In this document: positions 1,621 through 16,801 of the stretch, in pieces
Position numbering within the stretch: the stretch's first letter is position 1
Layout: each line of letters begins with the position of its first letter
Virus record (IMG/VR): IMGVR_UViG_3300039443_000002
Reading direction: 5' to 3' (one strand)
Source of the DNA: a virus
Length of the DNA stretch: 46,501 nucleotides
Position numbers and translations under genes: made by a program
Notes under the pieces: model-generated
What the model saw: the letters and a program-made list of their open reading frames with translations, nothing else
What the model was told of the DNA's origin: nothing
Database searches by the model: none

Positions 1621-3351
1621 CTATAAGCTGAGGATAGCGGGCAGAATGTAATTGTTGACAACGTATGTACAACCAGCAGGTGTCAGATTGTGTCCATCAG
1701 CTGTGAAGTAAATTGTGTTTGTCCATGGAGTAGCAGCGCTATTACTGCTAATTGATGGGAAACCAATGTTGACATCACTAGCTAAGTCAATGATGACGTT
1801 AGGAATGTTTGTCAATGCACCAGTTACTGCGTTACCTGCAACACCGGAAGTGCTGGAAATTGTGACGCCACGTATGTTATTAGCTAGGTTGTTCAGCGCT
1901 TGGTTCAAGGCAGTCTGTGTTGTCTGAGAAGAAGCGACACCATTATAGGTAGCTTGTGACTGCGCAAATGGAGTAATTACAGCTACTTTATAACCCTGTC
2001 CTTGCATTGCACCAATGTAAGTATTGAGAGAAGTAGCAATAGCTGCGCTGTTGTCACCGTTGTTGGTGAATGCGTCGTAAGCTCCAGCAAACAATAGAAT
2101 AACGTCCTTGTTTAGGAAGTTAAGCTTAGCTGCAATGTTGTTGTTTTTGTTGGTAGAACCGTTAACTGTAGCTGCTGTGCGCTTAGGCAGAGATGGGTTG
2201 ACGCCGCACCAGCTAGACCCTAGGGACGACAACAGTAGGTTAGGAACTGCACTACCCATCTGCGCGTTGCTTAGGAACATTCCAGCGAACAAGTCATCAC
2301 CGTCAAATATAATTCGGTTGGACACGTTCATCAACTGGAACAGGTTGAAGGTAGCTGACAATGCTTGAATAGCTGTGAGCGAAGCGTTGTAAACCGTGAA
2401 GCGTCCAACAATGTTTGTCTGAGCGCGACCGAGAATACCAATACCTGACGCGCCAGCACCCAGTCTTCCGCCAGTAGCAGCCGCAGTAGTTAAGGCAAAT
2501 GTTGTCGTAGTAGCCTGTCCGCCAGTCAGTGTCACCGCGTTAGCAGCAGCTATGCCCTTGTAGCCATTGACATACATTGTCGGAACCGTAGCAGCGTTAG
2601 AAACAAGTACGCATACTGACGGACCAGTTGTCAACTGTAGCCCAGTGTCCGCAGCATAGAACGCTGCGGAACCGGAAGCGTAGGGACACCAGGACATAGA
2701 CTGACCGTTTGTCGTAACACCTGCTGCGTTTTGGTTTGGTAGCCATGCTACGCCTAAACCGTTCTGAGCTGCCGTGTTAGCGTCTGTACCTAAGTTTACA
2801 ACGCCCATTCCCAAAGCTACGTTGAAACCACCCGTTGGGTATGACTGGTTGTTAACACCAAAGACTAAGCTACCTGCCTGTTGGCTAGTAATGCTCACCC
2901 CTGCTGGTAGTGTCATGTCCACTGCGCTAGCACCGGGGAAAGTTAAGCCATTGCTAACTACAGAAGCTTTGGTGTTACCAGTACCATTTGTTGACACTAA
3001 GAAAGTATTGCTGTTGACGCTGTCGTCCGGTGTCGCTAAAGTACTACCGTTCCATACATAGTCAGCTAACATGCTGGTTGTAGGGTAAGGGAGCGGGTTG
3101 AACACGTTAGCGTTAAGCGGGTAATTGACCAAGCTATTAATTGTAATGACTGCGTTAGCTGCCAGTGTCGGACCAACGTACTGCATGGTGTTGTTGCCCA
3201 GCTTTACGAAGTTACCGGGTGGAACTGACACACCATTAATAGTTGCTGTGAAGTCTGCGACACTAGCCAACGGACTAATGTTCGCTTGCGTTACGTCGAA
3301 GACGAAATTAGTCCCGCCCGCGACTTGTGTCTGTGTTACTGAACGTGGCAT
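1621..3351 (-). CDS. Tail fibre/spike protein with a C-terminal SGNH(GDSL)-like esterase-fold domain
   Basis: 576-aa ORF next to the other fibre gene. The middle region is lectin-like (YVWNGS...NGLTFPG). The C-terminal part has SGNH-like blocks IIFDGDDLFAG, ILLFAGAYDAF and FTADGHNLTPAG. Confidence 0.65.
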   Translation of the reverse strand: MPRSVTQTQVAGGTNFVFDVTQANISPLASVADFTATINGVSVPPGNFVKLGNNTMQYVGPTLAANAVITINSLVNYPLNANVFNPLPYPTTSMLADYVWNGSTLATPDDSVNSNTFLVSTNGTGNTKASVVSNGLTFPGASAVDMTLPAGVSITSQQAGSLVFGVNNQSYPTGGFNVALGMGVVNLGTDANTAAQNGLGVAWLPNQNAAGVTTNGQSMSWCPYASGSAAFYAADTGLQLTTGPSVCVLVSNAATVPTMYVNGYKGIAAANAVTLTGGQATTTTFALTTAAATGGRLGAGASGIGILGRAQTNIVGRFTVYNASLTAIQALSATFNLFQLMNVSNRIIFDGDDLFAGMFLSNAQMGSAVPNLLLSSLGSSWCGVNPSLPKRTAATVNGSTNKNNNIAAKLNFLNKDVILLFAGAYDAFTNNGDNSAAIATSLNTYIGAMQGQGYKVAVITPFAQSQATYNGVASSQTTQTALNQALNNLANNIRGVTISSTSGVAGNAVTGALTNIPNVIIDLASDVNIGFPSISSNSAATPWTNTIYFTADGHNLTPAGCTYVVNNYILPAILSL

Positions 3352-3425: not shown

Positions 3426-6400
3426 TCACTTAGTTGACCCGGACGCATTGGGCATACCTCTACGTAACTGCAAGGCTTCTGTTAATATTTTAGTCATCTC
3501 TTCCGCTCCAGGTAGCGGCGCTTTGTTCTGAATTACAGTTAATTGCTTTACTACCTCTATGGCTTTGGACGGCGGTATATGGTTCTGTACCATCCAAGCC
3601 ATAACCCTACCTCTGTCTACTGACATCTGGTACCAGTTGTCGATGTTCTGGTTAATGGCTTTTGTCCGTCTGTCTAGCTCCGCCTTTGGGACACCTCCTG
3701 TTAGCTGGTCATTCCTCAACGCTACCTGCGCGTTCTGTATTGACTTGTAGACATCATCTACAGCTTTGCCATACTCGTCAAATGTGTACTGCATATTCGC
3801 CGCAGGTCGCACGTAACTTAACTGTAGACCAGTACCGCGTAGCAATTGCCATAGCCACGCTTTCTCTACTGGCTGAATGTTCATGTCCGTGTCAGACCGC
3901 TGTGTACCAAATACACTTAATTGCTCCGGTCTGACAATGTTACCGTGAACGTCGTACATCTTTGCGTAGCCGAAGACACCGCCAGGGTTTACATCGTTTA
4001 TGTCTTTTGTAAACGGTACGGCTGCTGACAACAGGGCTGCTGCTGCTCGGCTCATGGGGATGCCCAGGAAGGTGTTGCCCTTAGCTAGCGGGTTGGGTAT
4101 GTCCCGTCCTTCGGGGTGCAGCTCCTCTACCATGTTCTGCAACCATGTCCCATTGGTAGCGTCGTTAAGCCAGTCTACCCAAGTGTCCTCACCGCCGATG
4201 CCCGCGTCGCTTAGCGCTTGGTCTCTCTGTCGTTCAGCGCTACCACTGTAATTGCCCCCATGTCCTGACAAAGACCCAAAGGCGTGCCAAACCCGTTGAC
4301 CTTCGTCATTAATGAAAGAAAGTGCGTCAAGTCTAGGGTCATAGCTTGTTGCTCGTAGGAATACATTAACACCGTCTACTGGTCCTTTTTGCACGAGAAT
4401 GGGAAAACGCAAACCGTCAAAGTCTCGAACACCGCCTTCAGGTATGCTATTAGCACCTTCGTACTGGTTCCATGCTGACAATAACCTATAGTATGCGACA
4501 TACTTATAAGGCTCTGCTAACATGTTGCGTATTGTCAGCGGTAAGTTCTTCATGCCCCAGGTAGCGAATGGCTTCAACCAGGTTGTGACAAACTTACCCG
4601 CTGTTCCTGTGTCAGCATAGTTAGGAAAGTATTCACCAATATGACCCATAGCGTCTTCAAATTTGTTAAACCTCTTAGGCATGAGGGCGAGGTTATACAT
4701 GCCGTCTGCACGCTCGCCTACTGTCTGAAGCACCGCGAGTTTTGCAGCAGCCTCCATAGACAAACCGACGTTGACAAATGGAGCGATGGTAGCGTCGACC
4801 GCTCTCCCGATTAACTCGGACCCGTAATGAATTCCCTTTAGCGGGTCTTTGAATGCGTCGCTGTACGCCAGAAAGTTCCTAATCGCCCCCGGCAATTTAG
4901 CCGGGTTTATTGCTTCACCACTACTATGACTGACCAACCATGGAGCTATAGAACTGTCCGTGTGCAACAAGGCTCGTTGCATGAATTGACGATGGGTGAG
5001 CATCTCCCCGTCGAACTTGATGAATGGCTTTGCGTTGTCGAAGGAGTCGAATCCCGTCTTCATCACTTGATGGTAGTCGATGTAACTTCCCAGGAAGCGG
5101 GACATATCCCCTCCGGCTGCTACCGTATTAGCCATGCTCTGCCAAAACATCCTACCGATGAATAATATTTTGCTCGACAAGTTGACACTACCCTTATAGA
5201 AATGATGCAGATAACTCCAGACCCCGCCAGCTTCAGCCAAAGCGCTTGGGCTAGCTGCGACATTCATCACCGCCTTCCACTGGTCCGCAGCTACCCTATG
5301 AACGTACAAATCACTTGCAGGTATGTCAATCCCAAATTGCTTGGGATTAAGACTGCCGACATTAACGTAGCGGCTTTTGTCTACAGCACTGAGACTGTCA
5401 TAGTCGTCTTTCGTGATTGTCCACCCAGCTTGAAGACCGTCCTTGATGACTGTCTTCGTAGAAGCGTAGTTAGCCACCCCGCGCTTAAGCCCTTCTGTGT
5501 AAGTCTTTATGGCTTCAACGGGGTCGTTACGCCATATTTCGTTAATAAACTTATGCGGGAGTTCATACTTAGTGACAAGGTAGTCATAAGCTTCACGGCT
5601 AGACATTGGCAGCTTCGTGAGTACCCCACTGTCAACGAGCTGGTCTACCTGCTCTGGTGTAGCGGACTGCTGGAGGAAATTACGCCACTCCCTGGGGTCG
5701 TCTGACAGAACCATTCGCTTTATTTCGTTTGATGAAGTTCCCAGAAATTTAGCTGCAATCTCTGCGTCTTCCGGCATATAGTGATAGGTAGACCGCATTC
5801 TATTCCAAACGGTAGAGAGACCGTTCTGATTGTATGAGCCACCTTTACGAAGTTCACTGTCCTCTATGCCTGAGAGTTCTTTCGCAAGGTCAGACTCTGG
5901 TTCCAGAGTACGCATGTAGAACGACATGTCCGGTGTTGCGATGCGTGGAAAATAACCCAAACCTTGCAGCTTCGATATATCGGAAATGCCCATCGCTTTG
6001 CCCAGAATCCGAGCTTCATCGAATGCAGAAGCTATGTCAGCCCCGCGTTTCACCAGCCCTTCATAGTCGGCTTGAGACAAGCCCATCTGTCGCATTCGGT
6101 CAGCAAAGTCCGTATAGCGACGACCGTTAAATTGACCGACAAGAGTCGTGTCGCCGTAGACTGTTTTGGACTTAGGTATTTGTCCAATTTCTACGGCGTC
6201 TCTCATTAGGAACTGTTTCTCTACTTCAGAAAACTTATACTTAGTAGATAGGGACTCAATGTAATCTCTAGCCGCTTTGACTCTTTGTAATGAATTATAT
6301 AGACCAGCCTGTCTCAGATAGTTCTGCGCCAACTCACGAGCTTTTACAATCTGTTCGTGCGCTAAGCCTGGGACTGACTTACCCAGACCGATTAGCATGT

Positions 6401-6680
6401 TATGTGTCTCGCCTAGAGACGCAGCTAGGAATGAACCAAGTCTGTCGTACTCCCCAGGACGGAGCATTACGAGGTGAGCCATCTCGTGCTGAAGTAAGTC
6501 CTCAATTCCGGCGCGAACTGCGGCGACGTTATCGGCAGCGTCTTGGAGATTGCCAAACATAGCATTGCGTTTGTTCACCTCAATTTTGCGCTTCGCCAGA
6601 TCAGACAATTCGTATGGATCGAAGTCGCGCTCTTTTGGTGTTTCAGTTCTTGTCGGATTATTATTGCAAAATACACTCAT
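3426..6680 (-). CDS. Large (1084 aa) putative internal/ejection virion protein with an N-terminal HExxH motif
   Basis: Position between the internal-protein genes and the tail fibres. HEMAH at residues 65-69 (nt 6474-6488). No other family recognised. Confidence 0.55.
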   Translation of the reverse strand: MSVFCNNNPTRTETPKERDFDPYELSDLAKRKIEVNKRNAMFGNLQDAADNVAAVRAGIEDLLQHEMAHLVMLRPGEYDRLGSFLAASLGETHNMLIGLGKSVPGLAHEQIVKARELAQNYLRQAGLYNSLQRVKAARDYIESLSTKYKFSEVEKQFLMRDAVEIGQIPKSKTVYGDTTLVGQFNGRRYTDFADRMRQMGLSQADYEGLVKRGADIASAFDEARILGKAMGISDISKLQGLGYFPRIATPDMSFYMRTLEPESDLAKELSGIEDSELRKGGSYNQNGLSTVWNRMRSTYHYMPEDAEIAAKFLGTSSNEIKRMVLSDDPREWRNFLQQSATPEQVDQLVDSGVLTKLPMSSREAYDYLVTKYELPHKFINEIWRNDPVEAIKTYTEGLKRGVANYASTKTVIKDGLQAGWTITKDDYDSLSAVDKSRYVNVGSLNPKQFGIDIPASDLYVHRVAADQWKAVMNVAASPSALAEAGGVWSYLHHFYKGSVNLSSKILFIGRMFWQSMANTVAAGGDMSRFLGSYIDYHQVMKTGFDSFDNAKPFIKFDGEMLTHRQFMQRALLHTDSSIAPWLVSHSSGEAINPAKLPGAIRNFLAYSDAFKDPLKGIHYGSELIGRAVDATIAPFVNVGLSMEAAAKLAVLQTVGERADGMYNLALMPKRFNKFEDAMGHIGEYFPNYADTGTAGKFVTTWLKPFATWGMKNLPLTIRNMLAEPYKYVAYYRLLSAWNQYEGANSIPEGGVRDFDGLRFPILVQKGPVDGVNVFLRATSYDPRLDALSFINDEGQRVWHAFGSLSGHGGNYSGSAERQRDQALSDAGIGGEDTWVDWLNDATNGTWLQNMVEELHPEGRDIPNPLAKGNTFLGIPMSRAAAALLSAAVPFTKDINDVNPGGVFGYAKMYDVHGNIVRPEQLSVFGTQRSDTDMNIQPVEKAWLWQLLRGTGLQLSYVRPAANMQYTFDEYGKAVDDVYKSIQNAQVALRNDQLTGGVPKAELDRRTKAINQNIDNWYQMSVDRGRVMAWMVQNHIPPSKAIEVVKQLTVIQNKAPLPGAEEMTKILTEALQLRRGMPNASGSTK

Positions 6681-6687
6681 ATGTCAT

Positions 6688-9600
6688 CTACCATTCACAC
6701 GGATTATTCTGACCCTCAGTTGTGTGACTTTCAAAGTCTGACTTCCAGTCAGCTAGAAAGTCTGCCTTTGCCTGCTGTGCCGCAGACAACCGCTCCGGTT
6801 CCGCGACTTGTTGAAGACGCTTATCTGCTGACAGCAGTCGATGCACTGCGCGACTGCCTTCATCTTCTACTAGTTGTAAGTCCTCCTTCGTCTTGTCAAG
6901 TAACCGCGACTGGAGAGTTATGTTACTCTCCATTTGATTCACTTGCGCTAGCGGCGATTGAGGGTGTTGGGAACTTACCAAGCTATCAGCGTTATATCGT
7001 GAAGCGGCTTGACCTAGTACGTCGTTTGCTACGCGAGCTTGGCTATCCAATAACTGCGCATTCCCTGACAGAAGATTGACCTTGTCACCATCCGTGATCG
7101 CGTCGAAGCCCATGGAATGCAAGGTTAGTGAGCTAACCTTGCTTACGTTGTGCAGCGTCTCTTCGTCCGTTACACCACTGGCGATTAGACGTTTCTCCAT
7201 TTGTGTAAAGTAATCCCCAAAGGGAGTGTCACCTTTAATGGACTTGGTGAAGTTTGCTATCTCGTCCTTGTTTACTCCGCCGACTTCTCGTAAGATCTCT
7301 CTAAATGCATTTTTGACCTGATTAGCCACTGCGGGTCGAAGGGGTACCCTAGTGTCAAGAGGTGAGTGGGTGGATAGCTTAACTTCGTGAACTGTTCCAG
7401 CGTCGCTATATAATCTTCCAGACACTGCTGGTAGATTATCTGTTGCTTTAGCATCTGCAAAAGTACGCGCCGTCTCCACATCAGAAACAACATACGTGCC
7501 GTGACCCCACTCATGGCGACCGCTACCATCAGCCCAGTTAACATCTGGTGTCCACTCCTGTACTTTAGTTCCGTGAAAAAATGACCGACCATTCAAATCA
7601 GCAGCCAGTTCCGAATTCGGTAAAGCGACTCCAGCGTACTTTGCTGGAATCTGGGTTTCCAGAGGGCGCGGTACCGTTGGCAACATTCGCCGTCCGATGT
7701 CAACCGTTGAATTTTCTAGCTTTTGATATGACAAATTCAGAACCTGACTCTGCTTCGTCACCTCGTCCTGAAGATGATTCACTGTCGCAGCTATATTCGC
7801 TGCTTGGCGCTCTGCATTCAGCTTTGCTTGAGTCTGGATTGTCGAAGAATGAGACTGACCAACTTCTGTATCCGGTATACGACTACGTTGCAGGTCTCTT
7901 AACGCGTCTGGACGACCAACAACGTCAGGGTCAGTAATGTTGACACGCAGGTTATGCGCCAAGTCCGTTGTCTCCGCTTTGGCTACTTCATTAGCTTTGT
8001 CAATGATGTAGCTACCCGGCTTGGACAATGGCGACACATCCATCGAAGTGTCAGGGTGAGCTGTGTCTACTGACACAGCCAGAGGATTACCGTCGCCAGC
8101 CAGCACGTTAAACTCTCCGCCAGCCAGTACGCTCTTGGGAATTTCAGCGCCGTAGGGTGCAAATATTGTCTTGTATATAGGGTCAGTAGCGCCGCGTTCT
8201 TGCAGCAAGGTATCTATCTGACCCCAACGTTTTAGTGCGACTGCATCTTTCCCCAAAAGGGGAGCGCCGTCGGGACCAGGAATGACACGGGCTAACCAGT
8301 CCATTTCGTCAATAGTACGTAGAGACTTATTCAGCATCGCCGGGTCTACCTGCATCCCAGGCTTCATAGTGCTTAGGGCTGACACTATATCGCTGTTCTT
8401 CTGCACACCCGTTAGAACATTGCCGCTAATAACTTTCCTTGCTAAGTCCTCCGTGGACATTTGGGCAGGATGAACGTATTCAACGTTATTGTTGACATTG
8501 TTTACAGCTTCTTCTAGTGACAACTTATGGTTATTCATCCAGTCTGTCACTTCGCTCATGCGCTCCATCGCTTCAAATGGAGAGTTGAATTTAAGCCCTA
8601 ATTTTGCAGCAGCTTGCGTTATAGGTGTACCCGTAATGACAGGCGTTGGTGACGCTGCCAGCGTCGTTGTAGGCTCTATTTGAGCTTTGGGGACAGATGG
8701 AGTTACCCTAATAACTTCCGGCCCGTCTACCCCCGGCGCGGGAATTGACACGTACTTTATGTCTCTTCCTGTTCTAACCGCCACAGGAGCAGGAAGCCTG
8801 ACAGGGGCTTGTGTCGGTGTTGGTGTAGCAGCTCCAGCACCAGTTCCCGCTTCAGACACAGGCGTTTCAGTTCGTCGCCGTGGCATGAGCTTACCAGGTT
8901 CTTGAACGTTACCCGCTGGTATAGTACCCGCCATAACTTCGCTGTTGACACTGGGCTTTCCTTCAGTTACAGTTGGCTTTATAGAAGTATTCTCTACACT
9001 TATTCCAGGTCCCTCACCCTCTGGCGGGACCATTTTTATAGGATGATTTAACGGTGACGAACTTTCACCTATTGCTGGTAACGCGGGACGCTCCGGTGCT
9101 CCTACTAACTGTTTTGGGGTGCCAGCTTCTGGCGCTGTTGGCGGTTCTGTACTTAATGGAACCAGACGACCTCTAGGCTTAATCTTGTTGTAGACAGCGC
9201 CCAGAGCTTTGTTGATGGGGTTGATTTCGTCTACGTTGTGGTAGACTAGCATATCAACCGCCATCCCAGCCCAGAAGCGTGGGTCAGAAATATTACCACC
9301 GGAACCAAATCCGAATGCGTGAGTCTTGTCCTGTGTACCGGAGAAGGAGCTTTGCTCACCACGTAGCGCGTTTAGGAAATGACTTCCTTTATACTGGGGT
9401 GTCGGCGCTATTGGTTCGACAGGTTGTAGGGAGGCAGACGGAAGTTGGACATTATTACCGAAACCAGCACCAAGTACAGACTTACCAGTTTGTCCAGTGT
9501 TGTTCATCAAAGGCTTGCTAGCCCAGCTCAGCCCCTGGTTGAGATATTTGACACCACTGTTGTAGAGATTAGCAGCATCATTGCCGAAGTCATGAGTGAG

Positions 9601-10671
9601 AGCATAGTCAGTAACACCATGCATCCATCCTGGGGTCACGCTGTCGATAGCTCTGGCAGCGCGGTTGAGGACGCTATTGAACGCATCTCCGACGCGACCA
9701 TAAGGTGCTGGGTTAGTGTTGCGCAGGTCTGCCACAGCGCCAAGGACAGCGTTCGGGACAACACCAAGAGTGTATAGAATACCACCAATAGGACCATTAC
9801 CCGCTTCACCGAACTGTCCTTTTGTCGGGTCAAACGGGTTAGTGCTGGGAGCGCCCCAGCTTCCCAACCAGCCCCAGAACGTTTTCATCATTGACCCAGT
9901 AGCGTCTGGGCGGTACTTGGTAGGGTCAGTAATGGTTTGCGGCTTAGGCTTCATCAGCCCCATGTTCAGGTTGTCATTGCTAATCTCCGTTAGTTGCTGC
10001 CTGAACTTCTGGTCCTCCTGGTCTAGATTGTCGCTACCCTGCTTTTGGTACCAAGTCGGGACATAGTTATGGGCTAATTCCTGCTCACCCAGCCCATGCA
10101 TCGTGTCACTACCTTGCTTTAGTAGGTAGTTCATCGGGTTGGTATCAGCGATTACCTGCGACGGGCTAGGTTGCCCAGAACTGGGAGCTTGCGGTATTGG
10201 GTCGCCTGGGGACAGAGTTGGGAAATTCTTGGGGTCAAGAAAGTTGTTAGGGTCGCCCTGGTTCATTGCGAACACGCTAGGGTCCTGACCGGGCATCTTT
10301 GACACTGGCGCTCCAGGGAATACCTGGTCGCCGCCCTGCGGTCCTGTCGGTCCCTGTGGCAGCAATGCATTAGTTTGCTGTAATGACTGCTGCATCATGT
10401 CACCACCCTGCTGATCCTGGGCAGGAGTGCTAGGCTGTGGCAACTCTGTCGCCGTTTGTGGTGGCGGAGCAGCTATACTATGCGGCGCACCACCTGACAT
10501 ATGAGGTTCAGCAACTTTAACTACGGGTAATTGCTGATGCGGTTGCTCAGCATTCTTTTGCTCGTAGTTAGTGACAAGGTTAGGATTAGTTGGTTGGTCA
10601 GGCATCGTGTATGGGCTGTCCGTAATGAGGAACGGTGGGCGAACCGCTCTGCCGCAGCTTGTCACAGACAC
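6688..10671 (-). CDS. Large (1327 aa as tracked) putative internal/ejection virion protein with a Pro/Gln-rich N-terminal region and an ADP-ribosyltransferase-like signature near the C-terminus
   Basis: Long ORF in the internal-protein block. FFHGTK ... WGHGTYVVSDVETARTFA at nt ~7480-7581. The real start is probably the ATG at 10605 (MPDQPTNPN), which overlaps the stop of the upstream 63-aa ORF. Confidence 0.55.
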   Translation of the reverse strand: MSVTSCGRAVRPPFLITDSPYTMPDQPTNPNLVTNYEQKNAEQPHQQLPVVKVAEPHMSGGAPHSIAAPPPQTATELPQPSTPAQDQQGGDMMQQSLQQTNALLPQGPTGPQGGDQVFPGAPVSKMPGQDPSVFAMNQGDPNNFLDPKNFPTLSPGDPIPQAPSSGQPSPSQVIADTNPMNYLLKQGSDTMHGLGEQELAHNYVPTWYQKQGSDNLDQEDQKFRQQLTEISNDNLNMGLMKPKPQTITDPTKYRPDATGSMMKTFWGWLGSWGAPSTNPFDPTKGQFGEAGNGPIGGILYTLGVVPNAVLGAVADLRNTNPAPYGRVGDAFNSVLNRAARAIDSVTPGWMHGVTDYALTHDFGNDAANLYNSGVKYLNQGLSWASKPLMNNTGQTGKSVLGAGFGNNVQLPSASLQPVEPIAPTPQYKGSHFLNALRGEQSSFSGTQDKTHAFGFGSGGNISDPRFWAGMAVDMLVYHNVDEINPINKALGAVYNKIKPRGRLVPLSTEPPTAPEAGTPKQLVGAPERPALPAIGESSSPLNHPIKMVPPEGEGPGISVENTSIKPTVTEGKPSVNSEVMAGTIPAGNVQEPGKLMPRRRTETPVSEAGTGAGAATPTPTQAPVRLPAPVAVRTGRDIKYVSIPAPGVDGPEVIRVTPSVPKAQIEPTTTLAASPTPVITGTPITQAAAKLGLKFNSPFEAMERMSEVTDWMNNHKLSLEEAVNNVNNNVEYVHPAQMSTEDLARKVISGNVLTGVQKNSDIVSALSTMKPGMQVDPAMLNKSLRTIDEMDWLARVIPGPDGAPLLGKDAVALKRWGQIDTLLQERGATDPIYKTIFAPYGAEIPKSVLAGGEFNVLAGDGNPLAVSVDTAHPDTSMDVSPLSKPGSYIIDKANEVAKAETTDLAHNLRVNITDPDVVGRPDALRDLQRSRIPDTEVGQSHSSTIQTQAKLNAERQAANIAATVNHLQDEVTKQSQVLNLSYQKLENSTVDIGRRMLPTVPRPLETQIPAKYAGVALPNSELAADLNGRSFFHGTKVQEWTPDVNWADGSGRHEWGHGTYVVSDVETARTFADAKATDNLPAVSGRLYSDAGTVHEVKLSTHSPLDTRVPLRPAVANQVKNAFREILREVGGVNKDEIANFTKSIKGDTPFGDYFTQMEKRLIASGVTDEETLHNVSKVSSLTLHSMGFDAITDGDKVNLLSGNAQLLDSQARVANDVLGQAASRYNADSLVSSQHPQSPLAQVNQMESNITLQSRLLDKTKEDLQLVEDEGSRAVHRLLSADKRLQQVAEPERLSAAQQAKADFLADWKSDFESHTTEGQNNPCEW

Positions 10672-10791: not shown

Positions 10792-13700
10792 CTAGTAGAG
10801 TCCTGGCAGTGTATAGCTTCTATTGTGACTCTTGTCGAAGCTCTTCATCCAGCCATACATATTCAGGTTCAAAGCTTTGTCATAGCTGGCAGCACTAATG
10901 CGCGTAGGGTCACCACTGTTTAGAGCTGACACTAGCCCTTGTCCACCCCAGATAGCGCCCTTAACCCAAGCTATGCCTTTCTGTAAGTCCTTCGGGTTAA
11001 ATTGCTCCAGGTACTTCTGGACATAAACCATTTGGCGCTCAGGCGGCATTGACCACAGTTCTTCTTTTGTCAGACCCCACTGCTTAGCGTCTGCGTCTCC
11101 GAAGCCGATGAGTCCTCCATAGCCAGAAGAGTTAGAAGCGGTCGGTTGTCCATTGCATTCAGAGTCAATGACATCCGCGAGCCATTGTCCAGGAATGCCA
11201 AGGTTGTTAGCAGTCCGATTAAGAGCCTGACGAAATGCGGGGTTACGACGAAGCCACGAATAACTATAGTCCGCGTCAAGGTCATTTTTTCCGGCAAACC
11301 CTCCGCCACGGTCAAACCCCATATCCAACGGTCGAGTGTTAGAAGTAGCATTCTGTATATCGACACCCTGAGCAAGAGCATTTTGAAGGGCATAAACTTT
11401 ACCATTTAGGACGTATAGTCCCGCTCCATAGTAGACTGCGTTCTTAGGAATTTTGGGGTGCTGGATGAATGGGTTGTTTGGTGCTTGCCAACCGGACATG
11501 TCTCCTCTAGGACCAGGAGCAACTGTATCCACTGCTCCTGCTGTTGCGACATATGACAAAGGGTTGACTGTACCGTCAAAGCCAAAGTTCCTAGCGTCCC
11601 CGCTGGGGTTACTTCCGTTTGCCGGTACAAAGTATTTCCTGACCTCCCAATCTAAATGAGGTCCTGTAGACAATTCGCCGGGGTGAGGTTCTCCAACTGT
11701 TCCTAGCGGCTGCCCAGCGCCGACCACATCACCAGGATGTACATTAAGGGAGCCGTCAAGATGAGCAAACCTGTGAAGCATTCCAGCCCTATCAACAAGG
11801 TCAACTGTATATCCGTAGCCATCATACCAACCTGCATGTACTATTTTCCCGTAAGTATAGCTGACAACCTGCGTTCCTGCCGGAGCCGCTACGTCTACAC
11901 CTGCATGTGTCAGCCCTCCTACTGGGTCAATTCCAGGAATAGCTCTGTGCTGTCCGTACGCAGTAGTAAATGTCACATTAGCATTGGGTAGGAACGGAAT
12001 AACGGCTTTGACACCATTGGGATTGTCTGGTGTCACTCCGATGGTGGTGCTGTAAAGGTTAACTGCTTTGCCTTGTAATGCGCTGGTTGTCGGTGTAAGT
12101 TCTGAGGTGTATTTGTTCTGGGCGCTCCCGCCCTTGTCAAAAGGGCTAGGAACTCCTAGCTGGTTCCCTGGTGGAGGAGCTAGCGTGTCCTGCATCTTCT
12201 TGATGAAGTCCTGATTGGACAAAGCATGTTGCTTCATCCTGGCGTCGATGTCCTGGTCTGTACCATAGAAGCCCATGTTCTTCATGAGCTGCGCCCTGCG
12301 ATCCATCTCAGTCTGAGCGTCGCGTACCTGATTGTCCAGCGCTCCCAGGGTTTGCCCTTCCAGGTTGATGATTTGCTGCTTTTGCTGATCTGACAAAAGT
12401 CCTGGAATTGTAATAGGTTTGCCGTCTGGTCCTGTTGGTAAAGCTCCCTGCGCCAGCAACATGTTCTGTAGCGTCTGGTTGTTCAGCATGAGACGCACCA
12501 AGTCATCGCCAGTGCTAGCCTGAATCTTGGCTTTCTCTGTCATCAAGTCGCCAATCTTCTGCTGCTGTGTCGGCACCCATTCACGGTATTGCCGCAGCTG
12601 GTCAGCCTGCGCTACGGCAGCTTTGACAGTATTGTTTTGCTTCCATATGTCGCTCTGTAGAAAGGTCTGTGCTGCCGGGTCGTTGTTGTAAATCTCCCAG
12701 GTTAACTGAGGTAGGATTGTCTGGTCAACAGCATGGAGCATCTCATTAGTAATGATGCCCTTGTTGCCCAAGTCCCTGATGTCCTGCTGCTGCTGGAGGA
12801 TAGACTTTGCATAGTCCTGGTTTGACAAAGGGTCTTCCGGCTTGAAGTCCGGTCCCAGTCCGGCTGCCATAGCAGCGCTGTGAGTCATCCGGTCGTAGTC
12901 TATCTTGCTGAAGCTGTTGCCTTTGCCGTCTTTGCCTGCTGACAAATAGCTTTGCGCTAGCTGCTCTGTTGCTAGGTACTGCGTGTACTTTGCTTGGTTG
13001 TCTCGTATCTCCTGTAGCTTACCAGCGTCGCCTTTAGCAGCGTCAGCTGCGCTTTGATACAACGTTGACGTGACAGCGATCTTGCCCCAAGTATCTAAGG
13101 TCTGATCGCTTGACACTTTGGAGATAACGTCCTGGAAGTCCTTCAGTGCTTGAGTCTTGTCAGCAAACGGAGACCCCAATTGCGCGATAGCCCCAGCAGC
13201 AAGACCTTGGTACTGAGCGGTTGCTTGCGCTCGGTACTGGGACATGATCTGCTGGTTGACCTCATACATCCTGTCATTGTTCTGCTTGATATAGTCCTTC
13301 GCTGGCTGAAAGGAAGACTCTATCAGGTTCTTGACATCTGTCGGGTCTAGGTTGGCGTATTCCGGTTTATGGATTATCTCTAGAACTTTTTGCTTATAGT
13401 AGTCCGTCCCGAACTGCGGGATAGTGTTGTTGAGCTGGAGTTCGTCAATCTCTTCTTGCGCTCTGGCAAGTTGGTCTTGCGATCGGAGCTTATAGGCTGA
13501 CACTGCTTGTTCAGTCTTTAGCTCTGTCATAGCCTTGTACTGCTCAGCCTTCTGCCCCTGGAAGGCTAGCTGGTTCTGGACAAACTGTTGCCCCGCTTGC
13601 CCGATAGCTTCATAACCTTTTGCCAGGTTTGCCGCTTTGCTTGCCTGCGCTTGCGCAATCATCGCCGCGCTATCTTGCCTTGACACCATTGCCCGACCAG

Positions 13701-13977
13701 CGGCGTCTAGACCGCTGTTGATGTCGGCAATGTTCTGCTTCATGTAGTCGTCGTTTTTGTTGAAGCTATTGGCTATTAGCTGTCCGGTTTGTTGGAGTTC
13801 GTCGATTCCGTGATTTGGAAACTGCGTAAAGTCTCGCGGACGGAGAGTGTTAACTTCTGTATTTCCAAGTTGACTTTGTCCTCCCTGCATCTGTCCGCCA
13901 GGGACTGCCTGTACTTGGAAACGCGGTGCGTCAATCCCGACAAGCTGTAAGGGCGATTGTCCTGATACATCTTCCAT
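10792..13977 (-). CDS. Internal virion protein with an M23 peptidase domain and a C-terminal lytic transglycosylase (SLT-like) domain
   Basis: M23 signature THAGVDVAAPAGTQV ... LHRFAHL ... GPHLDWEV (nt ~11608-12000). SLT signature VIDSECNGQPTASNSSGYGGLIGF (catalytic Glu codon 11158-11160). Functional analogue of T7 gp16. Confidence 0.75.
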   Translation of the reverse strand: MEDVSGQSPLQLVGIDAPRFQVQAVPGGQMQGGQSQLGNTEVNTLRPRDFTQFPNHGIDELQQTGQLIANSFNKNDDYMKQNIADINSGLDAAGRAMVSRQDSAAMIAQAQASKAANLAKGYEAIGQAGQQFVQNQLAFQGQKAEQYKAMTELKTEQAVSAYKLRSQDQLARAQEEIDELQLNNTIPQFGTDYYKQKVLEIIHKPEYANLDPTDVKNLIESSFQPAKDYIKQNNDRMYEVNQQIMSQYRAQATAQYQGLAAGAIAQLGSPFADKTQALKDFQDVISKVSSDQTLDTWGKIAVTSTLYQSAADAAKGDAGKLQEIRDNQAKYTQYLATEQLAQSYLSAGKDGKGNSFSKIDYDRMTHSAAMAAGLGPDFKPEDPLSNQDYAKSILQQQQDIRDLGNKGIITNEMLHAVDQTILPQLTWEIYNNDPAAQTFLQSDIWKQNNTVKAAVAQADQLRQYREWVPTQQQKIGDLMTEKAKIQASTGDDLVRLMLNNQTLQNMLLAQGALPTGPDGKPITIPGLLSDQQKQQIINLEGQTLGALDNQVRDAQTEMDRRAQLMKNMGFYGTDQDIDARMKQHALSNQDFIKKMQDTLAPPPGNQLGVPSPFDKGGSAQNKYTSELTPTTSALQGKAVNLYSTTIGVTPDNPNGVKAVIPFLPNANVTFTTAYGQHRAIPGIDPVGGLTHAGVDVAAPAGTQVVSYTYGKIVHAGWYDGYGYTVDLVDRAGMLHRFAHLDGSLNVHPGDVVGAGQPLGTVGEPHPGELSTGPHLDWEVRKYFVPANGSNPSGDARNFGFDGTVNPLSYVATAGAVDTVAPGPRGDMSGWQAPNNPFIQHPKIPKNAVYYGAGLYVLNGKVYALQNALAQGVDIQNATSNTRPLDMGFDRGGGFAGKNDLDADYSYSWLRRNPAFRQALNRTANNLGIPGQWLADVIDSECNGQPTASNSSGYGGLIGFGDADAKQWGLTKEELWSMPPERQMVYVQKYLEQFNPKDLQKGIAWVKGAIWGGQGLVSALNSGDPTRISAASYDKALNLNMYGWMKSFDKSHNRSYTLPGLY

Positions 13978-13983
13978 AATTTC

Positions 13984-15621
13984 TTAACCCCCGAATAGAG
14001 AAGCCGTAGACCCGCTAAAGCCACCTGACAAATCACCACTGCCGAAAGAAGTATCAGGATTGAGATTGACACCAGCGCTATAGCCGTAGTCTTGACCGCT
14101 AAGAAAGCCGCTGTTGGAAGATGTTCCGAAATTGGGAGTTCCGTAATTGAATATTGGGTTTTGAGAGTATTGCTGTGCATATTGCCTTTGTCCCTGAATC
14201 AATTGGTTTTGCTGATTTTGCTGGTTGTAAATGTTGTAGCCCTGCCCCAGCAGCCCGATAAATTGCTGAGCGTTGCCAGACCCGATTGCGCTTTGCTGTG
14301 CTGACAAACCAGCTAGCTGTGCCTGCAACTGTTGCTGCACTGCCCCGCTCTGCATGGCAAATCCTGACCCTGCCATAATCTGATTGACTGCTGCCGCATT
14401 CGCGTCGGATGCGCTGGCTGCCCGCAATCCTAGTTGCTGTGTCTGGATTCCGAGGTCGTTCATCTGACCAGTGAGCAATAGATTATTGATGTCTGCTGCT
14501 GTCGCGCTCTGTGTGTACTGGTTCTGCATTCCCAGCAAAGAATTGTTGACACCAGCATTCATCTGTAGCTGGAGGTTTGACAAACCTGATTGTCCTTGTA
14601 ACTGAGCTGACTGTAATTGCGCTTGCAAGCTATTCTGTCCAAACGCAAAGTCAGCACCCTGGTTTGTCATCTGCTGCTGGAGCGCTGCTAGATTCGACTC
14701 TGGTCCGTACATGCCCTCGCCAACCTGAGCTTGCTGTAGCTGCGTCTGGGCAAGCCCTTTCTGTAGTCCGGCTAGACCAGTTGCCGCGTTAGCTTCTCTT
14801 ATTGACTCTCCTGCTGCTTGGTTGGTGTTCTGCATCTGCTGGGCAAGTTGGTTTCCACTAGCCATGCTACTGGACTGGGCTTGACCAATGCTAGAAGCGT
14901 CAGTACCAGTGTTAATGCCATTGCTGGCAAACATTGCTTGGTTAGCCAGGTTACGTAATTGCGCATCAGTTATAGCTGTTTGTTGTCCCTGCATCCCTTG
15001 AGCCAGTCCAGACAATTGTCCGGCGCTCTGGTTCAAAGCTCCCGTAGCGTTTTGTGCCGCTTGCCCCTCGGCTGCGTAAGCCGCTCCCTCTTGCTGTGTC
15101 GATTGTCCCAGATTGCCCAGCGCTGCACTCTGTTCCTGGAATGCTTGAGTGTTGCCAGCCTGCTGCTGCTCAAGGGTACCGATGTCCGCCTGTAGCTTAC
15201 CACCCTGAATTGCCCCCAGACCCATCTGGGTATTGTAGCTATTCTCTGCTTGCCCCAGCAATGAATTGTAACTATTCTGTGCTTGGGACAATCCGGTGTT
15301 GAAGTTACTCGTGCTTTGCTGCAACTGGTCAGCAAACGTAGCCTGCTGCTGTTGAATCTGATTCATTATCTGCTGGGCACTAGCTCCTTGCAGAGCGTTT
15401 GACAACTGAGCTTGACGCTGCATCTGTCCCAACTGATACTGATAGTTCTGATATAACTGAGCAGTCTGTATTTGCTTCTGCTGTATGTATGCCTGCGTCT
15501 TAGTGTCTGCTGCTTGAGCCTGGAGAGACGCGGCTTGAGCTTGTTGTTGCTGCTGCTCAGCATTAAAACCGAATATAGCCTGAGCGCCGCCTAGAACGCC
15601 CCCAATCGCGCCTGCTCCCAT
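13984..15621 (-). CDS. Q/N/A/G/S-rich low-complexity virion protein (545 aa)
   Basis: Long ORF tightly packed between neighbours. Gly-zipper-like N-terminus MGAGAIGGVLGGAQAIFGF. The body is dominated by Gln with very few charged residues. G/S/F-rich C-terminus. Confidence 0.6.
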   Translation of the reverse strand: MGAGAIGGVLGGAQAIFGFNAEQQQQQAQAASLQAQAADTKTQAYIQQKQIQTAQLYQNYQYQLGQMQRQAQLSNALQGASAQQIMNQIQQQQATFADQLQQSTSNFNTGLSQAQNSYNSLLGQAENSYNTQMGLGAIQGGKLQADIGTLEQQQAGNTQAFQEQSAALGNLGQSTQQEGAAYAAEGQAAQNATGALNQSAGQLSGLAQGMQGQQTAITDAQLRNLANQAMFASNGINTGTDASSIGQAQSSSMASGNQLAQQMQNTNQAAGESIREANAATGLAGLQKGLAQTQLQQAQVGEGMYGPESNLAALQQQMTNQGADFAFGQNSLQAQLQSAQLQGQSGLSNLQLQMNAGVNNSLLGMQNQYTQSATAADINNLLLTGQMNDLGIQTQQLGLRAASASDANAAAVNQIMAGSGFAMQSGAVQQQLQAQLAGLSAQQSAIGSGNAQQFIGLLGQGYNIYNQQNQQNQLIQGQRQYAQQYSQNPIFNYGTPNFGTSSNSGFLSGQDYGYSAGVNLNPDTSFGSGDLSGGFSGSTASLFGG

Positions 15622-15795: not shown

Positions 15796-16112
15796 ATTCC
15801 AGCTCCGTCTAGTTGTAGAAGGTAATTACCCATCGCTGCCTTAGCAGTCATCACTATTGTATCTACACCAGGGGTACCTACGCTCTGGTGTTGGTCAGTA
15901 AATGTGACAATTACTTGGTTTGGCGTGTTAGGAACATTGACCGTAATAGCTCCCGGAGTAGCCACCGCATTGTAACCCGACAATTGAGGGTACGTCGTAT
16001 TGAACGTGTTGGTAAACACATATAGCTGTGCCAGTGTCGGGAGGATAGACGGACCGTTAATCTGTATGGTTAGTTGCTGATTGACAACTGTATTGCTCTG
16101 CGGTTGTGTCAT
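15792..16112 (-). CDS. Hypothetical virion-arm protein (106 aa)
   Basis: ORF with start/stop overlaps to both neighbours. No family recognised. Confidence 0.5.
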   Translation of the reverse strand: MTQPQSNTVVNQQLTIQINGPSILPTLAQLYVFTNTFNTTYPQLSGYNAVATPGAITVNVPNTPNQVIVTFTDQHQSVGTPGVDTIVMTAKAAMGNYLLQLDGAGI

Positions 16113-16801
16113 AGTCCCGGCACCTGTACGCCAACGTACTGAGCGTTTCTACTTACCCGTCCCAGCCAATCAGCTTCAAAGACTTTCTGGCTTGGGTCGT
16201 ATGCAACTATAGCTAAATAATACTGCTTCCTATTCTCTAAGACACTAGCTATTAGGTTGTTGAGGTGCCCCTTTGAGCAGTAGTACAACACTTCGTTGAT
16301 GGTCATGTGACCGCAGACCCCGTCCGGCGTGACGCCTACTAGTCCTTGAAGCGTTTTGACAGAACGGCTGACACCGCAATTAACAGCGTAGTCAAAGAGA
16401 ACACAGCTAAGAGACTTATTAAAGTTAGGTCCGCCCACCAAATTGTAGTACCCAGTGCGGTAGATGTCTGTGTATTCATCAACTGTAATGTATGCGACGC
16501 TCCGGGCTGGTAGTCCTTTACCATAACGGTAGCGATTGTATTCGCCTTGGGTGATGCCATAGTTAGTTGCACCGCCGTAGTCATTGGGGTCGTCACTATA
16601 ACCGCCTTCCTCCTTCAATGTGAACTGGAGCATCCATGGGAAGTTATCAACTATAGTTGCTGTCATTCTAGCCTCCTTGGGACTGACAAACCGAAGTAAC
16701 CAGTTATAACTGCTGACAATACTATCTGCTGCGACGGCGTAGGACTGCCAGTCTTTAGACACAGTGTCACGACAAAGAGAACTACGAAGGCTCTTATGCA
16801 T
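16109..16801 (-). CDS. GH108-type N-acetylmuramidase (likely endolysin or virion muralytic enzyme)
   Basis: Motif LKEEGGYSDDPNDYGGATNYGITQ is typical of glycoside hydrolase family 108. A strong SD (AAGGAGG) precedes the internal ATG at 16666, so the true CDS may be 16109-16666 (185 aa). Confidence 0.75.
   Translation of the reverse strand: MHKSLRSSLCRDTVSKDWQSYAVAADSIVSSYNWLLRFVSPKEARMTATIVDNFPWMLQFTLKEEGGYSDDPNDYGGATNYGITQGEYNRYRYGKGLPARSVAYITVDEYTDIYRTGYYNLVGGPNFNKSLSCVLFDYAVNCGVSRSVKTLQGLVGVTPDGVCGHMTINEVLYYCSKGHLNNLIASVLENRKQYYLAIVAYDPSQKVFEADWLGRVSRNAQYVGVQVPGL

Follow-up and report, generated by a model that had tools for sequence, protein, structure and literature searches.

What is an enzyme-like module doing at the C-terminal end of a protein that phages pack into their capsids? 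The question is raised by a gene in IMG/VR virus record IMGVR_UViG_3300039443_000002, a stretch of 46,501 nucleotides that is called the window below, whose product resembles the ejection protein gp27 of phage A4. A preliminary description of the DNA had drawn attention to two motif blocks in this gp27-like protein and had assigned them to the diphtheria-toxin/PARP-like H-Y clade of ADP-ribosyltransferases (ARTs). The existence of an ART-like domain was borne out by profile matches of the protein family, by structure matches and by conservation of the motif residues. Residues ~1006-1192 are probably a divergent ART of the H-Y-D type, named for a His, a Tyr and an Asp at the predicted active site, serving as an injected enzyme that modifies the host early in infection.

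An ART-like module in the gp27-like protein

The histidine that binds nicotinamide adenine dinucleotide (NAD) in H-Y-E ARTs lies in a [YFW]HG[ST] motif, and a G.G.Y block follows ~20-35 residues later. Both blocks are found in the minus-strand translation of 6688..10671, which contains NGRSFFHGTKVQEWTPDVNWADGSGRHEWGHGTYVVSDVETARTFA...GTVHEVKL..., and the FFHGTK codons lie exactly where they had been placed, at 7564-7581 (minus strand, 7581..7564). GHGTYV...ARTFA starts 23 residues after FFHGTK, in agreement with the spacing that had been claimed. Residues are numbered here from the ATG at 10605 (1305 amino acids); the numbers of the preliminary description, which followed a GTG frame, are 22 higher, and its span of 7069-7600 corresponds to residues ~1003-1179. 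A large low-complexity protein might by chance contain a resemblance to HG[ST]...G.G.Y, and the window sequence itself has no direct Pfam, NCBIfam or PDB-ART match, as expected of a coincidence. However, when the residues of the protein were shuffled 200,000 times, [YFW]HG[ST] with G.G.Y[FVLI] 15-40 residues further on arose a single time and the pattern extended with A..[YF][AC] never, the pattern is kept in ~100 homologue clusters, and profiles and structure independently support an ART fold. The motif blocks are real and chance is excluded as their source; as an account of the module, coincidence is so improbable that it can be disregarded.

Relatives of the protein are distant. No near relative at the DNA level was found by megablast against phage genomes, and tblastn recovered only short-tailed phages of filamentous freshwater cyanobacteria, namely A-4L, CHP58, PP, Pf-WMP3, LPP-2 and TR020, at 24-28% identity. 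Word-indexed homologue searches gave no matches with the sequence and one with a 36-sequence profile, and an exhaustive HMMER search was needed to recover 110 homologue clusters (47 at E<=1e-10). These clusters share only 22-37% identity, and the module is nearly always C-terminal, in proteins of 1000-2200 amino acids.

Profile searches with 36 members of this family point to one Pfam family in particular. PF18760 (ART-PolyVal) was matched by 19/36 members at E<=10, with a best E of 1.5e-8, DUF3990 was matched by 12/36 and PARP, weakly, by 1/36, and every other family was matched by one member at most. ADPrib_exo_Tox was not matched within the module, its one weak match (P0028, E 0.02) lying N-terminal to it. 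The PF18760 alignments begin at the HG motif (profile position 7-9) and, in three members, extend to position 129-132 of 140; ~180 residues are thus spread over ~122 profile positions, which implies an insert of ~60 residues. In the prototype of ART-PolyVal, the ART is joined to the N4-like virion RNA polymerase (vRNAP) of Roseovarius Plymouth podovirus 1 (RPP1; PMC5512222); this ART passes the PF18760 cut-off with a score of 36.5 bits. When the gp27-family profile was aligned to the RPP1 ART sequence with hhalign, strands 1-4 were matched with a Prob of 92.1% and E 6.3e-7; after removal of the insert, the whole RPP1 ART domain was aligned with a Prob of 96.1% and E 3.2e-9. The register pairs HGT with HGT, G.Y.T with GLFFT, V.EV with VKEV and PEE..QR..LR..GYDaI with RPDQFWINNQKDLNGLMVQGGYDGA, and Asp1168 falls on the GYD of 'GGYDGAIV' in RPP1. 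Homology to a bona fide ART-PolyVal member was thus found at the profile level.

Structure prediction points the same way. AlphaFold2, given the 36-sequence alignment, returned a model with a predicted local distance difference test (pLDDT) of 91.1 and a predicted template modelling (pTM) score of 0.80; a single-sequence run (pLDDT 44) gave an unusable model. In the model, strand b1 (FFHGTK) is followed by a short helix, b2 (GTYV), a helix (VETARTFAD), b3 (YSDAGTVHEVKL) and b4, and then by four helices, b5 (DAI, preceded by GF), b6, b7 and two long C-terminal helices, with the family-specific helical insert predicted after strand 4 and before the last core helix. In a Foldseek search of BFVD, the first matches were family members (Pf-WMP3_26, TR020 and A-4L), followed by viral proteins labelled ART-PolyVal, with probability 1.00. 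The latter include an 'ART-PolyVal-like domain-containing protein' of Yersinia phage fHe-Yen9-03 (E 3.9e-8, target TM 0.48), a 'PolyVal ADP-ribosyltransferase' of Myoviridae sp. (E 1.4e-6, target TM 0.57) and an ART-PolyVal-like protein of Salmonella phage Mutine (E 4.8e-4, target TM 0.55), all under labels that are automatic, not experimental. Several large proteins labelled LT_GEWL or ParB/Sulfiredoxin are also among the BFVD matches.

From the strand positions and the alignment, the catalytic triad is predicted to consist of His1011 on b1, Tyr1038 on b2 and Asp1168 on b5 (in model numbering, strand E16-23 contains H19, strand E45-48 contains Y46, and D176 marks the start of E177-179). An H(b1)-Y(b2)-D(b5) site is the configuration given for polyvalent-protein ARTs (PMC5512222). 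Because the strand-5 acid is Asp1168 in GFD (consensus GYD), the module falls in the H-Y-D group, ART-PolyVal/Tox-ART-HYD2, and is not a strict H-Y-E enzyme; the diphtheria-toxin/PARP-like H-Y assignment of the preliminary description holds, and its narrower H-Y-E label does not. Glu1074 of HEV, which had been put forward as one candidate for the third acidic residue, was rejected because of its place on strand 3 and its poor conservation (of 110 clusters only 54 have Glu, whereas 16 have Q and 11 have T; CHP58 has VYTV). As judged from the profiles and the model, the lineage of the module is ART-PolyVal/Tox-ART-HYD2 within the diphtheria-toxin/PARP-like clade.

Loss of the His and Tyr in homologues would have spoken against the ART assignment; both are well conserved. 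Counted over 108-110 aligned cluster representatives, His1011 is present in 104/108 and is followed by Gly1012 (108/108) and Thr or Ser at 1013 (107/108). The second block and its surroundings contain Arg1030 (90/109), Glu1032 (99/109), Gly1034 (104/109), Tyr1038 (86/109, with His in 15 more), Ala1046 (104/109), Ala1050 (98/109) and Asn1057 (98/109), and further on Glu1148 (102/109), Gly1166 (104/110) and Asp1168 (98/110) are kept. The helix VETARTFADA, which follows GHGTYV, places Phe1049 11 residues past Tyr1038, the spacing at which diphtheria toxin and PARP carry a second aromatic residue; position 1049 is aromatic in 77/109 clusters (Y in 69, F in 8). Over all 110 clusters the triad is H-Y-D in 74, as in the window protein, where it is intact, and H-H-D in 14, the other 22 including a few that are fully degenerate. 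A strand-5 Glu occurs in only 2/110 clusters, one H-Y-E and one H-H-E. The H-H-D clusters include P0018, P0019, P0022, P0025 and P0028, and both His and Tyr are lost in P0092, P0099 and P0101. The H-H-D and degenerate versions suggest a different substrate chemistry or inactivated, structural forms of the module.

Compared with the RPP1 ART, the module shows the same fold and H(b1)-Y(b2)-D(b5) layout, with HGT, G.[YF].T, A..YA, V.EV and GYD in register, and it is likewise fused to a large podophage protein predicted to be packaged in the head and ejected, with a predicted early host-modifying role. In contrast to the prototype, the window protein and its relatives in A4, PP and Pf-WMP3 fall below Pfam detection. 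The gp27 family also has a three-helix insert before the last core helix, 54 residues long in the model, and adds the conserved residues R1030, E1032, N1057 and E1148. These four (Arg1030, ~7516-7518; Glu1032, ~7510-7512; Asn1057, ~7435-7437; Glu1148, ~7162-7164) show 83-94% conservation within the gp27 family; no counterpart of the first three exists in the Roseovarius prototype, where Glu1148 aligns to Asp. As additional residues peculiar to the subfamily, they may serve the active site or substrate recognition.

Compared with diphtheria toxin, exotoxin A and PARP, the module has the same [YF]HG[ST] on strand 1 and G.G.Y on strand 2 and belongs to the same broad clade (PMC5512222), and it differs from diphtheria toxin and PARP in that the predicted catalytic acid is the Asp of GYD, not a Glu.

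The pre-ejectosome setting

The preliminary description had also placed the carrier protein in the block of internal or ejection proteins, and this placement is correct because of homology to A4 gp27, the gene order, a conserved pair of cysteines and natural gene fusions. In the Anabaena podophage A4 (A-4L), cryo-electron microscopy (cryo-EM) and mass spectrometry showed that gp26-gp29 form a pentameric, three-layered pre-ejectosome in the capsid, whose outer ring is made of alternating gp27 and gp26 and whose middle layer is gp28 (PMC12002296). The C-terminal helix of A4 gp27 inserts into gp26, Cys1715 of gp27 forms a disulfide with Cys5 of gp26, and double-stranded DNA (dsDNA) is held in the cleft between the two proteins (PMC12002296). 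The only PDB sequence match of the window protein is A4 gp27 (9k3a_B; phmmer E 1.1e-25, four matched stretches). Its neighbours match accordingly, the gp26-like protein with A4 gp26 (9k3a_A; phmmer E 8.3e-135) and the gp28-like protein with A4 gp28 (9k2v_E; phmmer E 1.3e-51) as well as with M23 peptidase structures, and the A4-type order of gp28-like, gp27-like and gp26-like genes is kept downstream of the nozzle gene.

The model of the module and its C-terminal helices superposes on the same A4 chain. In a Foldseek search against the PDB, 9k3a_B ranked first (E 1.4e-17, query TM 0.75, 318 columns), which means that the homologous module is ordered and modelled in the A4 pre-ejectosome. Homology between the two proteins extends across the C-terminal 300 residues and portions of the N-terminal and middle regions, and A4 gp27 has the triad as His1426, Tyr1448 and Asp1580. 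They differ in that identity is only ~24-26% and that the window protein is shorter (1305 versus 1717 amino acids); the virion location shown for A4 gp27 is predicted by homology for the window protein.

Since the window protein ends in NNPCEW and its partner begins with MSVFC, the Cys(-3)/Cys5 pair is kept, as it is in A4, Pf-WMP3 and TR020, and the cysteine of the gp27-like protein is invariant in a seven-phage alignment. Furthermore, natural fusions of gp27-like and gp26-like proteins exist in some metagenomic relatives. P0107 (2221 amino acids) and P0029 (2028 amino acids) carry the ART module in the middle, and their matches to the gp26-like protein (1e-60 and 2e-88, respectively) lie immediately past it. 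By their sequences, such fusions amount to a Rosetta-stone style confirmation of the partnership between gp27 and gp26. P0040, P0059 and P0062 are also candidate fusions, by length.

Searches of Pfam, NCBIfam and PHROGs recognised no second enzymatic domain in the 1305-residue protein, only the ART module, and the lytic domains reside in the separate gp28-like protein. On its sequence, then, the gp27-like protein does not qualify as a polyvalent protein, a term defined by several unrelated effector or enzymatic domains in one virion-delivered polypeptide. The carrier in this case is a ring protein of the gp27-type pre-ejectosome, unlike the vRNAP or the MuF/zincin-type polyvalent proteins to which other ART-PolyVal domains are joined.

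Enzyme, scaffold or both

A number of results weigh against an active, injected ART. The window protein, its C-terminal 337 amino acids and the isolated domain gave no ART match in Pfam/NCBIfam at E<=10, the PF18760 gathering threshold (31.2 bits) was not reached by the window protein or the isolated domain, and a construct with the insert deleted matched only DUF3990 in Pfam, at E 0.21. Profile searches thus supported an ART through family members, which match PF18760 and DUF3990, and not through the window sequence itself. Ten individually scanned members all stayed under the PF18760 gathering score, at 16-26 versus 31.2 bits where matched. Searches of PDB sequences by phmmer and hmmsearch, including one with a seven-phage profile, matched A4 gp27 only, and no solved ART. 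In the Foldseek search against the PDB, solved ARTs were not significant (1tox_A, E 0.13; PARP4, 8swz_B, E 0.44), and the remainder of the list was ferritin-like and helical-bundle noise; no ART is significant there because the long C-terminal helices dominate the comparison. The triad is broken in ~20% of homologue clusters, and TR020, an Arthronema virus, has Thr at the Asp position. We also know of no ART-PolyVal member that has been characterised biochemically.

Because ~20% of clusters have broken triads, the module can evidently persist without catalysis, and it could be an inert, exapted ART fold with a purely structural task, in which it would pack against gp26 and gp28, touch the first DNA circle or help to build a trans-envelope channel. 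Consistent with such a task, the homologous region of A4 is ordered in the outer pre-ejectosome layer adjoining the bound DNA circle, A4 lacks the second aromatic residue at position 1049, and TR020 keeps the module without the Asp. The A4 authors invoked no enzyme; 'ribosyl' is absent from the main text of their paper, in which the gp27 region is not called an ART (PMC12002296). However, conservation in the C-terminal region is highest precisely at the NAD-site positions of H-Y-[EDQ] ARTs (H 96%, G 100%, Y/H 93%, D 89%), and a purely structural domain is not expected to keep such residues at 22-37% identity. Loss in a minority of lineages is, moreover, common among effector domains. A solely structural role is therefore unlikely, without being far-fetched.

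It could also be argued that the module is an active NAD-using enzyme of another kind, one that ADP-ribosylates phage or host DNA or RNA, hydrolyses NAD+ as a glycohydrolase, or counters host defence. The dsDNA in the A4 gp26/gp27 cleft would fit a nucleic-acid substrate, and the H-H-D site of 14/110 clusters recalls the His-for-Tyr replacement in RNA 2'-phosphotransferases. The ART superfamily does have DNA- and RNA-modifying members as well as NADases (PMC9503650). On the other hand, those who described the ART-PolyVal/Tox-ART-HYD2 clade group it with protein-modifying ARTs (PMC5512222), and the 25 Pfam families listed for the 36 members include neither DarT nor Tpt1/KptA. Furthermore, the DNA visible in A4 is proposed to be the end that is packaged first and ejected last, and the ejection proteins must exit before it. 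Activity of this kind is very unlikely.

An ART that modifies a host protein therefore remains the preferred explanation, and we infer its catalysis, cytoplasmic delivery and target as follows. By homology to A4 gp27, ~5 copies of the gp27-like protein would be built into the outer pre-ejectosome ring within the capsid, where the Cys in the last turn of the C-terminal helices would tether each copy to Cys5 of its gp26-like partner. On infection, the ejection proteins would exit before the DNA by way of the portal and tail, as other podophage ejection proteins do, and the C-terminal module would presumably enter the NAD-containing cytoplasm, which would be expected to reduce the gp27-gp26 disulfide. 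There, as soon as infection begins, the ART could move ADP-ribose from NAD+ onto a macromolecule of the host, most likely a protein. Host RNA polymerase is one candidate, a guess modelled on T4 Alt; it is attractive because no RNA polymerase gene was found in the phage.

T4 Alt is comparable in that it is a capsid-carried ART, delivered with the DNA, that modifies host proteins such as RNA polymerase (PMC5512222, PMC9503650). Unlike the module described here, Alt belongs to the R-S-E (Alt/VIP2) clade, whose active site is not homologous to that of an H-Y-D domain (PMC5512222), and in its myophage it is a free internal protein that does not belong to an ejectosome scaffold. The Arg, Ser-x-Ser and Glu-x-Glu of the Alt/VIP2 site are not found in the gp27-like protein, where the positions are H, Y and D.

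A more elaborate version of the host-modifying ART would reconcile the enzyme with its place in the scaffold. The module might be a load-bearing part of the ring, kept inactive in the capsid by its disulfide tether to gp26, and reduction of the tether in the host cytoplasm might release the active enzyme, which would then ADP-ribosylate host RNA polymerase, or possibly DNA, and allow a T7-like phage without an RNA polymerase of its own to take over transcription. This is a speculative extension to which we give little credence; if it is true, A4 gp27 (PDB 9k3a) would be the first enzyme of the ART-PolyVal type to have been visualised in place within a virion, and the first with a defined mechanism of delivery and activation.

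Genome context and significance

The positions of the module, its carrier and the partner proteins are collected in Table 1.

Table 1. Window coordinates of the gp27-like gene, its predicted ART module and the genes of partner ejection proteins.
Feature	Position	Strand	Basis or remarks
gp27-like ejection protein gene, 1305 amino acids	6688..10605	minus	list of open reading frames, translation; stop codon 6688-6690
Predicted ART-fold domain, residues 1006-1192	7030..7590	minus	AlphaFold2 model, Foldseek, hhalign, Pfam matches of the family
Strand-1 motif FFHGTK	7564..7581	minus	His1011 codon 7573-7575, predicted NAD-binding His
Strand-2 motif GHGTYV	7489..7506	minus	Tyr1038 codon 7492-7494; model strand E45-48
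HEV (His1073-Glu1074-Val1075)	7381..7389	minus	within model strand E74-85 (strand 3)
Family-specific insert, 54 residues, three helices, residues 1090-1143	7177..7338	minus	model helices H99-116, H121-130, H137-150
Strand-5 motif GFD	7102..7110	minus	Asp1168 codon 7102-7104; start of model strand E177-179
Long C-terminal helices, residues 1196-1305, with NNPCEW at the end	6691..7020	minus	model helices H204-221, H226-306; Cys1303 codon 6697-6699
gp26-like partner ejection protein, 1084 amino acids, N-terminus MSVFC	3426..6680	minus	Cys5 codon 6666-6668
gp28-like ejection protein, 1061 amino acids, M23 peptidase domain	10792..13977	minus	PHROG peptidase/endolysin matches

The window appears to be a nearly complete podophage genome with a T7-like layout. 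Its genes include those for a primase/helicase, a DNA polymerase, a Cas4-like exonuclease, ThyX, terminase, portal, capsid, nozzle and lysin; no open reading frame (ORF) of RNA polymerase size and no RNA polymerase match were found in the window, and it contains no tRNAs. The start of the gp27-like gene is ambiguous. The mechanical ORF begins with a GTG at 10671, giving 1327 amino acids, and an identical public protein (P0001, 1305 amino acids), encoded on a metagenomic contig of 46,495 bp, begins with the ATG at 10605; neither start has an obvious Shine-Dalgarno sequence upstream, and a scan for promoters and terminators around the gene gave background levels.

A 545-amino acid ORF at 13984-15621 (minus strand), which occupies the place of the innermost ejection protein gp29 in A4, matches nothing in PDB, Pfam or PHROGs, and a 576-amino acid ORF at 1621-3351 (minus strand), between the gp26-like gene and the tail fibre gene, has no Pfam or PHROG match. 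Between the nozzle gene and the ejection block, a 230-amino acid protein (16109-16801, minus strand) carries a GH108 lysozyme and a PG_binding_3 domain, in addition to the M23 peptidase of the gp28-like protein.

Two close homologues of the gp27-like protein, P0005 (1336 amino acids) and P0002 (1712 amino acids), come from the 7.85-Mb chromosome of Nostocales cyanobacterium HT-58-2 and from ~38-kb contigs of Calothrix assemblies. They suggest integrated or co-assembled relatives of an otherwise lytic-looking phage group, with heterocystous cyanobacteria as the likely hosts.

Public databases name members of the gp27-like family 'hypothetical protein', 'tail protein' or 'ParB-like partition nuclease'. 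The last of these, used in PHROGs and RefSeq, was rejected, as Pf-WMP3, PP and A4 offer no Pfam support for ParB. ParB-type labels on the homologues of A4 gp27, namely gp26 of Pf-WMP3 (L002, 2419-6906), gp26 of PP (L004, 768-5906) and phrog_33290, look wrong. The label 'Tail fiber protein; host specificity' for gp26 homologues (phrog_19395; 3426-6680 in the window) conflicts with the cryo-EM of A4, in which the protein is an internal ejection protein.

ART-PolyVal domains fused to phage proteins that are packaged in the head and ejected were already known (PMC5512222, PMC9503650), and polyvalent-type ARTs were predicted in 2017 to be head-packaged and injected (Iyer et al. 2017, PMC5512222). 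In the literature on ART-PolyVal, Saffermanviridae, and ejection proteins together with ADP-ribosyltransferase, no report of an ART in a gp27-type protein was found, and no report was found of a polyvalent-type ART seen in a virion. The gp27 family is a so far unannotated subfamily, distinguished by its helical insert, its extra conserved residues, its role in the ring scaffold, and its disulfide to, or fusion with, the gp26 partner.

The finding corrects the public annotation of the gp27-like gene family, and it links a predicted enzyme family to a protein whose homologue has been resolved in the capsid by cryo-EM (A4 gp27, 9k3a). Phage A4, for which CRISPR editing is available, can be manipulated genetically, as can its host Anabaena PCC 7120, and the A4 virion structure is solved; the prediction of 2017 is therefore directly testable. 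The finding also suggests how podophages that lack an RNA polymerase of their own might seize host functions at the moment of entry.

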